Of a stretch of 64,000 nucleotides of DNA, positions 1,956 to 18,181 are shown piece after piece. Position 1 is the stretch's first letter; the number at the start of each line of letters is the position of its first letter. Origin of the DNA: Patescibacteria group bacterium (GTDB lineage Bacteria; Patescibacteriota; UBA1384; XYA2-FULL-43-10; 1-14-0-10-43-13); the NCBI GenBank assembly GCA_041666325.1, contig JBAYHC010000003.1, positions 95,102-159,101 on the forward strand. Reading direction: 5' to 3'. A model generated the notes under the pieces. The model did not search any database, was not told the DNA's origin, and was given only the letters and a program-made list of their open reading frames with translations. Both the position numbers and the translations under genes were made by a program.

Positions 1956-3152
1956 CTACTCTTCCGCTTGGGGCATGTTGAGATAACGAAAACCAGAAGG
2001 CCAATCCTGGCCCAAGCTGTAATCATAATAAAAGGCGCTATTACTAGCAGAGCTAATGTTAAAATTCTTTGCCACAAAAGCACCGCTAAAAATTGTATTG
2101 TTGCGCTGAACCGTGAAGGTATCCCGAGAGAAGATGGCTGCTTGAATCTTGTTGTTGCCAGCAAAGGTAATATTGCCCGTAACGATGATGCCAAGCCGGC
2201 TGTTGCGATCGCCATGTTCGATAGACACGCCATCACCAATAGTCATGTTACCCTTAACAATTATGGTTCCCTTGCCGTAATACAAATGGTCATGATTTGT
2301 AAGGTTTAGGTCGCCATCGACAACCCAAACCTTGCCTTCTGGATAAGCACTGGCCTCACTTGGGGTAGTGCTCGTATAAATTCCCGCGCCTTTATTAATA
2401 TCAGTTCCAGAGGGAACACCAGCATTTTGCAAATACCAATTATACAAATTAATTGCGTTCATATTCTGCAAACTGTGGGTAGCATCATTGATCACCACAC
2501 CCTCGCTAGCGAGAACATCAATCTTTTCTTTGTATTGCTTGTAAACTTCGGTCTCAGTTGCACCATCACCCTTAAGCCAAGTCGATTGAGCTTGCGGATT
2601 GAGTGTATAATTTCCCAGTTTCCAAGCGGAATCAGCCTTTGGTAAGCCATTGGTTTGAGATTGGGCAAGATTTTTGCCCCAATACTTGAAACTATCAGCC
2701 AAACCATCTCTTGAATAAATATCGCCCAAAGCAAGGCTTTTAGGATACACCGTAGCCGCGACCTCAATCATTGCTTTATTGCTCTGCTCAGGATCAGAAA
2801 ACAAAGTTCTGCTAGTCATTAGCTGAATGCCATTTGCAATACTAGGAAATGTTTCGAGGATAAAACAGGCCGTAGTGACACTCAATCCACAAGATGATAT
2901 CGAACGAGCAAAGCCTAATTTAAACGTTGGGGGAGTGAGAACGTTAATGTCATCTGAGGAATAATTAACAACCGCCTCGTTACCATTGAAGCTACCGTAG
3001 TATGTATCCTTACCATCAACAATAACGCTTGCCTGGCCAGCCATGACATCTGGTAACTTACCCGAAGAGGCAAAAGTAGGTGTGGGCAAAACAGAAAGCA
3101 ACAAAGCCAGTGAGGTTAAGATGAGTCTCATTAATTCCTCGTTACAGTACAA
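1956..3152 (-). CDS. secreted protein with beta-helix-like repeats (possible pilus-associated or adhesin-like)
   Basis: 398 aa with a signal peptide (LTSLALLLSVLPTPTFASS). The C-terminus carries repeated G-N-I/M-T-I-G/F-A-G-N turns typical of parallel beta-helix proteins. Its 5' end overlaps the 3' end of the glycine-rich gene, suggesting translational coupling. Confidence 0.5.
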   Translation of the reverse strand: MYCNEELMRLILTSLALLLSVLPTPTFASSGKLPDVMAGQASVIVDGKDTYYGSFNGNEAVVNYSSDDINVLTPPTFKLGFARSISSCGLSVTTACFILETFPSIANGIQLMTSRTLFSDPEQSNKAMIEVAATVYPKSLALGDIYSRDGLADSFKYWGKNLAQSQTNGLPKADSAWKLGNYTLNPQAQSTWLKGDGATETEVYKQYKEKIDVLASEGVVINDATHSLQNMNAINLYNWYLQNAGVPSGTDINKGAGIYTSTTPSEASAYPEGKVWVVDGDLNLTNHDHLYYGKGTIIVKGNMTIGDGVSIEHGDRNSRLGIIVTGNITFAGNNKIQAAIFSRDTFTVQRNNTIFSGAFVAKNFNISSASNSAFYYDYSLGQDWPSGFRYLNMPQAEE

Positions 3153-5596: not shown

Positions 5597-6874
5597 TTAA
5601 TGGATAATGTCATAGCGCGGCCTGCCAAAGGGAATTCGGTCAGGAGCGCTATCGCGGCCATAAAACATAGAAGCCGGATAAGCCACACCCGGACCGAACT
5701 TATTGTCTATTTCATCAAGAACATGAGAAATCTGGCGAGATTTATGAATTTCTGAAAAGAGAGAAATCTGTTCGCCCCTCATTCGAACCAATCCGAAGGC
5801 TGACACGGAAACAAAAATTGGCTGACGCTCCCTAAACCCTAACTGATCCGGGCTATCGAAGTCATTCCACAAACATTTCCTAAGCAAAAATTCAACATGC
5901 TGACGAAAACTATTGTTGTCGCAAAAAGGATCCACCCTTTTGCTCTGATGAAAATTATTATGATCCGTGAAACCGATAGCGACTGATACACCGCTGGCCC
6001 AACAGCCACATTGCCTCAATCGATACCCCGCCTTGTAGATAAGCTTGTCCAAAACTGATAATGCCCCTTGTTTTGTCCTAAGATCAGGAGAAAGGACATG
6101 AGAGTGACCAATTGTTTTACCCTTGGCCTCAAACCTATCGACCTCATATCCCCTAAGCCGAAAATACCAAAGACGGCCTGGGTGATTGAGGATCTGGCGC
6201 AACTCAGACAAGGTCATATGATATAGGGAAAGAGGTGTAAAAACTCCCTTCGCCTTCAAAAATTTTTCCATGCGCCAATTTATCCCGGGCAGGTCAATCA
6301 GTTGCAGACAAGAGTAAAAAGATTCTAGTTCATCAAGCTCCAGAACTGTCATCCCGTCGGGTTTTTTGCTCTCACCTGCCACCTTGGACAAAAAATAGTT
6401 CGGACCAATACCGATTGAGCAACGAAGATAGTCCCCGACATCTTTCGCCATCTTTGCCTTAATACTTAGCGCTAACACGGCAGAAGACTTCTTGTTCTGC
6501 TCCCTTGGCGTCAAGCGCAGCAAAAATTCATCAATGCTCAACGGTTGGTAAAAGGGCGTGAAACTTTCAACAACCTTTTTTATCTCTTTGTGATAGATCA
6601 TGTAGAGAGCGGGGCGCGACTCTAAAATAGCAACTTTGGGATAAATACTCTTGGCCTCCCCGACTTTAGTACCAGTTTTTATGCCCAGAGCCTTTGCCTC
6701 AGAGGAGGCCGCGATAATGCAACCGCTGTTACCGGTATAGGGAGCAACACCAACCGGCTTCCCTCTTAGCTCTGGTCGGACCTGCTGCTCAACAGAGGCA
6801 AAGAAGGAGTTCATATCGAGAAAGAGAGTTCCATAATCCTTTGGAGGATTATGGAACAAGTTAATAAAGTTCAT
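5597..6874 (-). CDS. dinB: DNA polymerase IV (Y-family translesion polymerase)
   Basis: N-terminal FLDMNSFFASVEQ motif followed by the GKPVGV...SYEAKALGIKTG palm region, which is diagnostic of the DinB/UmuC family. Length is 425 aa. Confidence 0.85.
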   Translation of the reverse strand: MNFINLFHNPPKDYGTLFLDMNSFFASVEQQVRPELRGKPVGVAPYTGNSGCIIAASSEAKALGIKTGTKVGEAKSIYPKVAILESRPALYMIYHKEIKKVVESFTPFYQPLSIDEFLLRLTPREQNKKSSAVLALSIKAKMAKDVGDYLRCSIGIGPNYFLSKVAGESKKPDGMTVLELDELESFYSCLQLIDLPGINWRMEKFLKAKGVFTPLSLYHMTLSELRQILNHPGRLWYFRLRGYEVDRFEAKGKTIGHSHVLSPDLRTKQGALSVLDKLIYKAGYRLRQCGCWASGVSVAIGFTDHNNFHQSKRVDPFCDNNSFRQHVEFLLRKCLWNDFDSPDQLGFRERQPIFVSVSAFGLVRMRGEQISLFSEIHKSRQISHVLDEIDNKFGPGVAYPASMFYGRDSAPDRIPFGRPRYDIIH

Positions 6875-16739: not shown

Positions 16740-16813
16740 TGGCAGGGGTACGAGGAATCGAACCCCGATCGACGGTTTTGGAGACCGTTGTTTTACCGTT
16801 AAACTATACCCCT
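16740..16813 (-). tRNA. tRNA-Trp (anticodon CCA)
   Basis: Minus-strand sense AGGGGTATAGTTTAACGGTAAAACAACGGTCTCCAAAACCGTCGATCGGGGTTCGATTCCTCGTACCCCTGCCA. It has a 7-bp acceptor stem, a CUCCAAA anticodon loop and an encoded CCA, and is very close to E. coli tRNA-Trp. Confidence 0.9.
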
Positions 16814-16943
16814 AAAAAGTGTGAAAGGCCTGCCCGCAGTCGCTTCGCTCCAGGCGATGCAGGCGGGCGAAAGCATGAGAGTACTAAGCTGGCAGAATAC
16901 AGATCTAATAAAAGATCTGTCTCGGCTAACAGTGCTTTCACAC

Positions 16944-17111
16944 TTACTTTGTCTCTTTGTGTACAGTCTTCTTGCGATCGTGTGGGCAGTATTTTTCGAA
17001 CTCCAAACGAGCAATAACGCCCATTCCCTTGAGGCGCTTCTCTGTGTGGTAATTCCTGCTTTTGCAAACTGTGCATTCGAGTGTAACTAATTTTCTTGCT
17101 TCTTTGGCCAT
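16944..17111 (-). CDS. rpmG: 50S ribosomal protein L33
   Basis: MAKEARKLVTLECTVCKSRNYHTEKRLKGM...RLEFEKYCPHDRKKTVHKETK, 55 aa, with the C4 zinc-ribbon typical of L33. The rpmG / tRNA-Trp linkage is also typical. Confidence 0.85.
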   Translation of the reverse strand: MAKEARKLVTLECTVCKSRNYHTEKRLKGMGVIARLEFEKYCPHDRKKTVHKETK

Positions 17112-17221
17112 TTTGTCCTTAATTTGTCGTCCCGAAACCCGAAGATAGCCCCGGGCTCTTGATTCAGGATCTATTCTAATGACTGGATTCCAGATCAAGT
17201 CTGGAATGACAATATATATTA

Positions 17222-17296
17222 TGGAGCCATCTATCGGATTTGAACCGATAACCTACTGTTTACAAAACAGTTGCTCTACCGTTGAGCTAAGATGGC
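17222..17296 (-). tRNA. tRNA-Thr (anticodon TGT)
   Basis: GCCATCTTAGCTCAACGGTAGAGCAACTGTTTTGTAAACAGTAGGTTATCGGTTCAAATCCGATAGATGGCTCCA; acceptor GCCATCT/AGATGGC, anticodon loop UUUGUAA. Confidence 0.9.
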
Positions 17297-17560
17297 CTAC
17301 CCTATCAAGCCATCAATCAACCCTTGCTTTTTCTCTGACCGCCAACCCTTAATCTGCATTTCCCGCTTGCGAGCCTCCGATTTGCCTGGGAAGACGCCGG
17401 AAATGTAAACGATTTCCATTGGGCCCTAATCGATCACAAATTTTGCGCCTTTGCCACTATTGTGCAAGGATAATCTTCTGATCGGATCAGGCGAGATTCC
17501 AGTGTAATACCGCTTTGTCTTGATCGATTGAGCGATGTAGACTTTCCACTCCTCCGTGTT

Positions 17561-17680
17561 GGCCCTTCGACTTCACTCCGTTTCGCTCAGGGTCACTCGA
17601 CTTACGCAACTTAATACTATTGCCAAGACAAGTGGTTTACCGCGAGCGAGGCATTAACTTGTTAATGACGAGTCGAGTGG
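17561..17680 (-). repeat. structured tRNA 3'-trailer element, copy A (downstream of tRNA-Tyr)
   Basis: RNA sense: ...CCA-CUCGACUCG...GCUCGCUCGCGGUAAACCAC...AGUCGAGUGACCCUGAGCGAAACGGAGUGAAGUCGAAGGGCC. A 10-bp stem pairs CCACUCGACU (including the tRNA CCA) with AGUCGAGUGG about 100 nt downstream. A homologous copy follows tRNA-Thr(GGT). Confidence 0.5.
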
Positions 17681-17763
17681 TGCTGGGAGTAGGACTCGAA
17701 CCTACGAAGGCGTGAGCCGTCTGATTTACAGTCAGATGCGTTTGACCACTTCGCTATCCCAGC
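17678..17763 (-). tRNA. tRNA-Tyr (anticodon GTA)
   Basis: GCTGGGATAGCGAAGTGGTCAAACGCATCTGACTGTAAATCAGACGGCTCACGCCTTCGTAGGTTCGAGTCCTACTCCCAGCACCA; long variable arm, anticodon loop CUGUAAA, encoded CCA. Confidence 0.9.
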
Positions 17764-17772
17764 ATAATATTA

Positions 17773-17897
17773 AAGGCCCTTCGATTTCGCTTCGCTCCAC
17801 TCAGGGTCATTCGACTCTCGTGCTCAGCTAAACTATGTTTGCAAGAATGGTTCACCATGAGCGAGCCGTTGAGCGTTAGTGATGGCGAGTCGAATGG
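17773..17897 (-). repeat. structured tRNA 3'-trailer element, copy B (downstream of tRNA-Thr-GGT)
   Basis: Homologous to copy A, sharing the blocks GGCCCTTCGA, CAGGGTCA(C/T)TCGACT, TGGTT(T/C)ACC, GAGCGAG and GAGTCGA(G/A)TGG. The stem CCAUUCGACU/AGUCGAAUGG has a compensatory change at the position where A has C:G. Confidence 0.5.
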
Positions 17898-17970
17898 AGC
17901 CGTTGACGGGAATCAAACCCGTGACCTCACCCTTACCAAGGGTGTGCTCTGTCAACTGAGCTACAACGGC
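17895..17970 (-). tRNA. tRNA-Thr (anticodon GGT)
   Basis: GCCGTTGTAGCTCAGTTGACAGAGCACACCCTTGGTAAGGGTGAGGTCACGGGTTTGATTCCCGTCAACGGCTCCA; acceptor GCCGTTG/CAACGGC, anticodon loop UUGGUAA. Confidence 0.9.
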
Positions 17971-18118
17971 AGCTAGTATTTGAGAATAAACGTCCGAAAC
18001 CCATGATATTTTATCGGTAAAGCTTCTCTGCAGAATTTTATCAACAGGCTGCGCGAAACCCTTAATCAACGTCTGTCATTGTATCATATTGTACAAAACA
18101 AAGCAATGTGTACGTAAG

Positions 18119-18173
18119 CTCATATCGAATCAAAAAAGCCCCACACTTAGGGCCTTTTTTGACTCGATATGAG
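18119..18173. terminator. palindromic, probably bidirectional, intrinsic terminator
   Basis: CTCATATCGA ATCAAAAAAGCCCCACACTTAGGGCCTTTTTTGAC TCGATATGAG. The GC hairpin is flanked by A-run and T-run and enclosed in a 10-bp outer inverted repeat. It lies just downstream of minus gene 18182..18412. Confidence 0.6.
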
Positions 18174-18181
18174 CAGAATCG

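Follow-up and report, generated by a model that had tools for sequence, protein, structure and literature searches.

What are the two related, structured stretches of about 120 nucleotides (nt) that follow tRNA-Tyr and tRNA-Thr(GGT) in a stable-RNA operon of a Patescibacteria group bacterium (assembly GCA_041666325.1, contig JBAYHC010000003.1), and what is the meaning of their pairing with the CCA end of the tRNA before them? We analysed 64 kb of this contig (the window, in whose positions coordinates of this locus are given), where the trailers, copy A behind tRNA-Tyr and copy B behind tRNA-Thr(GGT), lie on the minus strand like all features of the operon (Table 1). With a probability of about 0.65, judged from sequence comparisons, they belong to a selfish, nuclease-associated family of insertion elements that occupies the 3' flank of tRNA and transfer-messenger RNA (tmRNA) genes throughout the candidate phyla radiation (CPR)/Patescibacteria and that is apparently undescribed.

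The two trailers are true paralogues, as the initial annotation had proposed. They agree in 82 % of aligned columns, and both match one covariance model built from copies of other genomes (scores in Table 1), with helix P1, the CUCGCUCA box, hairpin P3, the 3' strand of P1 and hairpin P4 following in this order from the 3' end of the tRNA; a search of the 64-kb window with this model gave no match beyond A and B. The shared boxes GCUCGCUC and GGU(A/G)AACCA and the CCCU/AGGG hairpin noted earlier are all there, and the claimed long-range helix exists (CAYUCGACU / AGUCGARUG). It is, however, 9 and not 10 bp long, as the distal strands are AGUCGAGUGA and AGUCGAAUGA rather than ending in GG: the base following the distal strand is A, so that the first C of the CCA faces A and is unpaired. 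The difference between the copies is indeed compensated (U-A in B, C-G in A), and it was A that changed on both sides, because its orthologue in the relative described below has U-A.

In the family, the parts follow in this order: tRNA position 74, the 5' strand of P1 (CAUUCGACUCG), a variable hairpin P2, the box CUCGCUCA, P3 (a small hairpin AUGG-UAAA-CCAU, or longer), a variable linker, the 3' strand of P1 (CGAGUCGAAUG), 0-1 nt and finally P4, which has a stem of 4-6 bp, an invariant GAG...UCGA that forms tandem G.A pairs, and a top that varies. The covariation of P1 and of the 3' hairpin stem is far beyond chance. Among the copies found by a search that left P1 free, pairing in this helix reaches 93 % and double changes occur at 5 of 11 pairs, a result equalled by none of 500 shuffles. 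Among those found by a search that left P4 free, 57 of 73 have a P4 stem that closes with its own 3' partner; permuted partners gave a mean of 22.9 and a maximum of 32. At least 15 complementary forms of the P4 stem occur, including CCCU/AGGG, CUCU/AGAG, CAGU/ACUG, UUCU/AGAA, UCUC/GAGA and CUCC/GGAG. P2, absent in about one-fifth of the copies, has no conserved sequence, but its fold is far more stable than that of shuffled sequence (mean z = -2.9). Between the orthologous A copies of the window and its relative, compensatory changes are seen in each of P1, P2 and P4. The trailers are thus conserved and structured, with covariation at many positions, and a degenerate tRNA duplicate, which had been named as the alternative, can be dismissed, given that no tRNA or tRNA-like match falls on the elements and the covariation reaches far beyond one position.

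The family was delimited by a scan of one genome per species with words of the 3' hairpin and a scan of metagenomes with words of the 5' half, all data being metagenomic. The former yielded 58 loci, about 39 of them CPR loci with the whole element (Peribacteria/Peregrinibacteria, Saccharibacteria, Parcubacteria and other Patescibacteria), the latter at least 120, and in total at least 149 copies stand in 178 public loci, almost all from Patescibacteria. The earlier worry that there might be two copies only, unconserved in other genomes, is thereby answered. Among the copies listed, 92 of 149 lie directly against an ARAGORN-predicted tRNA, with 17 amino-acid types represented; many of the remainder abut tmRNA genes (confirmed in at least nine loci), others abut tRNA 3' fragments, and a minority lies behind no recognisable stable-RNA gene. 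Elements are 75-150 nt long, begin at tRNA position 74-75 or at the tmRNA 3' end, and always have the orientation of the host gene. In the collected loci, which were chosen for carrying the element, 86 of 188 tRNAs are trailed by a copy. Several copies without a tRNA (L020, L037, L091, L119 and L133) share a 35-nt upstream stretch, ..GGUUCCA..UUCG..UCCACCA, which reads as a short antisense open reading frame (ORF; MVDxVxxxWNxL...).

That the element comes and goes is seen by comparison with L180, the syntenic locus of a relative from a groundwater metagenome-assembled genome. There, tRNA-Thr(GGT) and tRNA-Tyr are 1 nt apart and copy B is absent; relative to this arrangement, B is a clean 130-nt indel with the flanks ...GGCTCC and ATGCTGGG, bordered by tRNAs that are about 96 % identical. 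L180 in turn has a compact 76-nt copy behind tRNA-Thr(TGT), where the window has none, and a clear P4-type hairpin (AUCCCGAGCGAG...GAGUCGAGGGAU) after rpmG. Its orthologue of copy A (2382-2499) precedes an intact gene for a 95-amino-acid GIY-YIG protein with an ATG start, whereas the window retains a pseudogene with ACG at 17557-17555 in place of this ATG and an in-frame TAG at 17428-17426 where L180 has CAA; the pseudogene's stop codon abuts tRNA-Thr(TGT). Hence, presence/absence polymorphism applies to the non-coding element, while for the nuclease gene the comparison is intact versus decayed. The best-supported reading of these alignments is that copy B, a solo copy, was acquired once the lineages of the window and L180 had separated, and that copy A is the leader of a dying nuclease gene. 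Nor is the element peculiar to this operon: it is found behind tRNAs of 17 amino-acid types as well as tmRNA, and it is present or absent between close relatives, so that it looks like a selfish insertion and not like an ordinary spacer of a tRNA operon.

Further traces come from other loci. L104 and L106 carry near-identical copies behind different tRNAs on one contig, and L028, L130, L131, L139, L195 and L197 hold duplicate 3' fragments of tRNA or tmRNA genes, placed behind the cassette or flanking short inserts; from their sequence, these duplicated ends look like the footprint expected of insertion into such genes. Separately, we record that direct repeats of the last 16-20 nt of the tRNA flank inserts of 63-127 nt in L139 (~2960-3040), L195 (1175-1341) and L197 (1087-1228), and that L180 (2150-2225) has, immediately before the intact tRNA-Thr(GGT) gene, a partial duplicate of its 5' part, with a 50-nt insert.

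Small nuclease genes of the GIY-YIG type, that is, of a homing-endonuclease superfamily, usually have the element just upstream, a link that the initial annotation missed even though a decayed gene of this kind stands directly behind copy A. The proteins match PF01541 with E-values from 6e-15 to 9e-20, as well as the UPF0213 structures 1zg2 and 1ywl, and the closest homologues of the window's GIY-YIG (94 in number) have 84-95 amino acids and come nearly all from Patescibacteria. In the collected loci, the GIY-YIG ORFs begin 3-45 nt past P4. Both orientations of the P4-type hairpin unit, U, lie within 260 nt upstream in 24 of 33 non-redundant GIY-YIG genes, a downstream unit in only 6-7 of the 33. 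When we started from the protein instead, all seven genes looked up were 75-130 nt downstream of a same-strand tRNA, with the element between the two in five cases and other structured spacers in two. Roughly every second cassette would have no Shine-Dalgarno-like sequence other than the 3' strand of P4 itself, with GAAGG/GAGGA at 3-8 nt before the start codon. In the lineage of L197 (1305-1500), the spacer between tRNA and GIY-YIG gene belongs to a different trailer family with repeated UUUACUUCGAACGNAGUGAGAAGA units, and the layout of tRNA, structured spacer and GIY-YIG gene is therefore broader than one element family. In L028 (minus strand, ~5970-6360) the order is a full tRNA-Val, 13 nt, the GIY-YIG gene, a second, disrupted 3' part of the same tRNA-Val, whose anticodon loop holds a 14-nt hairpin, and lastly the element.

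From this we propose that the element is the non-coding module of a selfish nuclease cassette that settles in the 3' flank of genes for stable RNAs. The nuclease would cut at or near the 3' ends of tRNA and tmRNA genes, and repair would copy the cassette; the element would be co-transcribed with the tRNA, and its fold would separate the tRNA from the downstream message. Solo copies without an ORF, such as B, may be left over after decay of the nuclease gene, or may have spread in trans.

Several points weigh against this proposal. About 80 % of the copies have no adjoining nuclease gene and yet keep the structure, which could indicate a host function. Unlike known GIY-YIG homing enzymes, the proteins of 84-95 amino acids are bare catalytic domains in which we found no site-specific DNA-binding module. 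No target-site duplication was found at copy B, and the case for mobility consists of few presence/absence comparisons together with the duplicated tRNA ends. A cassette resembling an insertion sequence (IS), with hairpins flanking the nuclease gene, was considered and rejected, for the hairpins stand upstream only. Furthermore, both scan patterns fix part of the sequence, and the covariance model was built from 33 genome copies, so that an alignment derived from it leans to the model's structure.

How, then, is the pairing with the CCA end to be understood? The initial annotation had drawn attention to its sequestration in a long-range helix. That this is the selected feature is contradicted by the forms that the junction takes across lineages. 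In the canonical form, the junction CCAU faces an AUGG box and, in the 3' strand of P1, AAUG. Window copy A, L106 and L142 have CCAC, with GCGG or GUGG in place of the box and GAGUG in the P1 strand. L190-L194 (Levybacteria and Curtissbacteria), where the tRNA gene ends at the discriminator base, have the junction CUCU with AGAG and AAGA; L188 (Moranbacteria), with a tRNA gene lacking CCA, has CACU with AGUG and AAGU. Both partners follow the junction change in every lineage listed, some of which may share ancestry, and an internal C-to-U change in the 5' arm of L013, L020 and L046 is likewise matched in both. Since junction and 5'-arm changes are matched twice, the junction segment keeps two mutually exclusive partners. 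Judged by these alignments, the CCA pairing is incidental and not the selected feature, as the helix is kept by double compensation where the tRNA genes have no CCA. Recognition of CCA in the style of a T-box or RNase P does not fit either: the AUGG box pairs CCAU in cis and shifts to AGAG or AGUG where CCA is missing, and the T-box and RNase P models gave no match on the elements.

The origin of this pairing becomes clearer from the architecture of the element. Unit U consists of a 4-nt stem, GAG(CGAG), a loop, (CGAG)UCGA and a 4-nt stem, with tandem G.A pairs, and the 5' half of the element, CCAU-UCGACUCG-P2-CUCGCUC-AUGG, is the exact reverse complement of such a P4-type unit. The element is therefore an inverted doublet of one hairpin plus an extra 3' arm, namely reverse-complement U (5'), small hairpin, variable linker, extra 3' arm of U, and forward U. 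This inverted repeat accounts for the conserved boxes and probably for the CCA-containing helix. It is also the reason why thermodynamic folds (RNAalifold, minimum free energy) favour a long hairpin between the two units over P1 plus P4, with -41.0 versus -31.2 kcal/mol in copy A and -36.3 versus -33.9 kcal/mol in copy B. Each unit apparently folds alone, because the outer stems of the two vary independently. For the same reason, and as A.C mismatches arise, we rejected a pseudoknot or switch between the box CUCGCUCA and UGAGCGAG of P4, whose complementarity is best put down to the inverted repeat; the pairing may still form transiently.

It is this architecture that lends weight to a DNA-level repeat of the REPIN or IS200/IS605 type, in which single-stranded DNA (ssDNA) hairpins would be recognised, the 4-nt box would pick the insertion site and the RNA fold would be a by-product. 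The doublet gives each strand one G.A-type hairpin; the junction covaries with two internal boxes in four lineages, as do the C-to-U changes; insertion is precise and without target duplication; and the apical loops are mostly C-GNA-G, a very stable DNA mini-hairpin. Lone U-type hairpins also occur, in L180 behind rpmG and elsewhere in Acidobacteriota, Omnitrophota and further phyla. However, neither a RAYT (REP-associated tyrosine transposase) nor a Y1/HUH transposase was seen in the loci, where no scan with a hidden Markov model (HMM) was made for RAYT, and GIY-YIG is the only recurrent neighbour. GIY-YIG enzymes are not known to transpose DNA. The hairpins, moreover, lie upstream of the gene only, and on the transcribed strand G.U pairs exceed A.C pairs. 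On balance, we consider this explanation unlikely.

The bare hairpin unit (UGACCCUGAGCGAG...CGAGUCGAAGGGCC) was also encountered in Myxococcota, Acidobacteriota, Planctomycetota, Omnitrophota and Syntrophaceae (non-CPR matches such as L007, L016, L035, L040, L048 and L054), in L040 as a tandem array, and may be a much more widespread repeat. Presumably it corresponds to the spurious 'PFDKLRV'/'VRPEPVEG' peptides of predicted proteins.

The strand bias leads to a second explanation, that of a host element for tRNA maturation, either a processing or protection signal that sets the tRNA 3' end or a stable spacer RNA released from between tRNAs; the GIY-YIG genes would then only make use of the same highly transcribed sites. 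Pairs of the G.U type outnumber those of the A.C type on the tRNA strand by 48 to 24 (p=0.006), and purine-purine mismatches fall on the sense strand. A host element would also suit the constant tRNA orientation, the start at position 74-75, the end that often lies 0-12 nt before the next tRNA, and the covarying helices kept in solo copies. Nevertheless, all four tRNAs of the window's operon encode CCA and only two carry the element, in the close relative, where it is absent, a single nucleotide separates Thr from Tyr, some copies follow no stable-RNA gene, and CCA-encoding and CCA-less tRNA genes are served alike. Being so patchy within one operon and between close relatives, the element is unlikely to be a pure host processing signal, and we judge this alternative distinctly improbable. 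A role as guide to its own tRNA was rejected, as duplex energies of the variable parts were no better than against other tRNAs (p=0.72), and so was protein coding through the element, with no long ORF across it on either strand. Enrichment of UNCG loops as a sign of RNA-level selection was likewise not upheld (only 3 of 27 tetraloops).

The weakest alternative, a new self-cleaving ribozyme at the junction that would free tRNA and nuclease message in the manner of the hepatitis delta virus (HDV)-like ribozyme of R2, would suit the position between a stable RNA and a selfish gene, the multi-helix fold with invariant boxes (CUCGCUCA and GAG...UCGA) and the two exclusive junction pairings that are both kept, but is very improbable, with no match to an Rfam ribozyme family even at E<=10, a helix order unlike HDV, hammerhead, twister, pistol and hatchet (compared by eye only), and invariant boxes that the inverted repeat of unit U explains. 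K-turn, hammerhead-core and HDV-like readings of P4/P1 were also rejected by eye, the required bulge or strand order being missing.

More generally, the Rfam check that had been suggested found no known family on the elements: with Rfam 15 only tRNAs reached the gathering score in the window, and even a limit of E<=10 brought no match overlapping the elements there. Strong copies in four other loci were likewise free of matches at E<=1. Group I and group II intron models had no match in the window or these four loci, and the tRNAs are intact. A phage origin was discarded, since neither word pattern matched in a collection of viral contigs and the GIY-YIG proteins had no match in PHROGs or PADLOC. 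No description of the element was found in open-access literature text.

Returning to the selfish nuclease cassette, its structure could be selected as RNA, by insulating the tRNA, offering processing sites, controlling translation or acting as a ribozyme, or as DNA, through REPIN-like or IS200-like recognition by the nuclease. The G.A and G.U pairs on the sense strand argue for the transcribed strand; the inverted doublet, together with a junction that covaries with two partners, argues for a mechanism that is guide-like or acts at the DNA level. Carried further, and with more speculation than confidence, the hairpin module, as RNA or ssDNA, might be the specificity partner that guides the 84-amino-acid GIY-YIG protein to tRNA and tmRNA 3' ends by pairing of the 4-nt box with the junction, perhaps with the tRNA attached; this would be a new guided homing or transposition system, possibly with a junction ribozyme as well.

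Table 1. The stable-RNA operon of the window and the parts of copies A and B (window positions; strand; basis and remarks)
Feature	Position	Strand	Basis and remarks
tRNA-Thr(GGT)	17895..17970	-	CCA encoded; copy B begins inside CCA; ARAGORN and Rfam tRNA, 67.7 bits
Copy B, 123 nt, solo	17775..17897	-	Covariance model, 91.0 bits; tRNA-Tyr begins 12 nt past its end
B, P1 5' strand CAUUCGACU	17888..17896	-	Begins at tRNA C75; sequence and family covariation
B, conserved box CUCGCUCA, then small hairpin P3 (AUGG-UGAA-CCAU)	17847..17865	-	Alignments; AUGG box covaries with junction tetranucleotide
B, P1 3' strand AGUCGAAUG	17808..17816	-	Sequence and family covariation
B, hairpin P4 (CCCU-GAG...UCGA-AGGG)	17777..17806	-	Repeat unit U with tandem G.A pairs
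tRNA-Tyr(GTA)	17678..17763	-	CCA encoded; copy A begins inside CCA; ARAGORN and Rfam
Copy A, 120 nt, leader of decayed GIY-YIG gene (best-supported reading)	17561..17680	-	Covariance model, 88.3 bits
A, P1 5' strand CACUCGACU	17671..17679	-	Sequence
A, variable hairpin P2 (CAUUAAC-AA-GUUAAUG)	17652..17667	-	Folding; compensatory A-U/G-C change versus L180
A, box CUCGCUCG, then P3 (GCGG-UAAA-CCAC)	17632..17650	-	Alignment; box/junction covariation
A, P1 3' strand AGUCGAGUG	17594..17602	-	Sequence
A, hairpin P4 (CCCU-GAGCGAAACGGAGUGAAGUCGA-AGGG)	17563..17592	-	C-G here versus U-A in L180
GIY-YIG (UPF0213-type) pseudogene	17297..17557	-	Local HMM; Pfam PF01541, E=6e-15; alignment to intact L180 gene; 94 homologues
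tRNA-Thr(TGT)	17222..17296	-	CCA encoded; without element in this genome
rpmG	16944..17111	-	
tRNA-Trp	16740..16813	-	

Other structured stretches occur in and around the operon, all on the minus strand. Behind tRNA-Thr(TGT) (~17140-17221), a different hairpin, GUCAUUCCAGACUUGAUCUGGAAUCCAGUCAUU, precedes AUCCUGAAUCAAGAGCCC, which may be a degenerate hairpin of the P4 type, and behind rpmG (~16840-16905) there is a GC-rich hairpin, GCCCGCCUGCAUCGCCUGGAGCGAAGCGACUGCGGGCAGGC, with a loosely P4-like core (GAGCGAAGCGA). Upstream of the operon, a long perfect hairpin with a U-run (18118-18174) probably terminates the preceding gene; its matches in Rfam are spurious microRNA ones only. Between it and tRNA-Thr(GGT) stands a weak promoter-like site (18112-18083).

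CPR/Patescibacteria account for a large part of all bacterial diversity. Tiny as their genomes are, many of their tRNA and tmRNA genes carry an element that is absent from Rfam. Its link to GIY-YIG genes suggests that the UPF0213 proteins, whose structures have been solved, belong to a selfish system targeting stable-RNA genes, a counterpart, if so, to the GIY-YIG insertions already seen in rRNA genes of CPR. The junction box with its two exclusive partners offers a handle on how a nuclease without a DNA-binding domain finds its site. In addition, a family model would remove many spurious 'hypothetical proteins' and improve the annotation of tRNA operons in metagenome-assembled genomes.

Among known systems, the R2 retrotransposons of 28S rRNA genes, which bear an HDV-like ribozyme at their 5' end, are selfish elements co-transcribed with a stable RNA, with a structured junction RNA able to pair with upstream host sequence, as the element described here would be. 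In contrast to R2, no reverse transcriptase is present here and the fold is not HDV-like. The RtT RNA of E. coli (RF00391) and the small RNAs of tRNA 3' external transcribed spacers resemble the element in being repeated sequences directly downstream of tRNA genes; they form part of the tRNA transcript, from which tRNA processing sets them free. RtT repeats, however, include a duplicate of the tRNA 3' end and are not linked to a nuclease gene; they share neither sequence nor model match with our element and differ in taxonomic range.

Comparable in architecture are the repetitive extragenic palindromes (REP) and REPINs: like them, the element is a short imperfect palindrome with covarying stems, in many copies per genome and in inverted doublets (about 150 copies found over all loci), with one small nuclease-type gene. 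Where REPINs have their RAYT, a Y1/HUH transposase, the only recurrent neighbour found for the element is GIY-YIG, and its copies are tied to tRNA and tmRNA 3' ends in a single orientation, with an extra arm that forms P1. IS200/IS605 elements similarly insert directly 3' of a short sequence without target duplication, and have an internal 4-nt box complementary to the junction, which in our four lineages appears to change with it; they differ in their TnpA/TnpB genes, of which there is none here, and in that the hairpins of our element lie on one side of the gene only.

As a selfish cassette, the element compares with homing endonucleases. Where a group I intron with its endonuclease interrupts its host gene, the tRNA here is uninterrupted and free of matches to group I or group II models, and in place of one conserved site the 3' ends (position 74-75) of many tRNAs and of tmRNA are used. 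As in homing-endonuclease cassettes, a GIY-YIG gene sits within a highly transcribed stable-RNA cluster beside a structured non-coding module, ORF-bearing copies occur alongside ORF-less ones, the nuclease gene decays (here in the window), and presence varies between relatives. A survey of CPR rRNA genes found all GIY-YIG genes in non-intron insertions, tRNA genes being outside that study (PMC11270868), and the free-standing SegB of T4 sits, as do the cassettes described here, within a tRNA cluster, in that case of a phage (PMC2330249).

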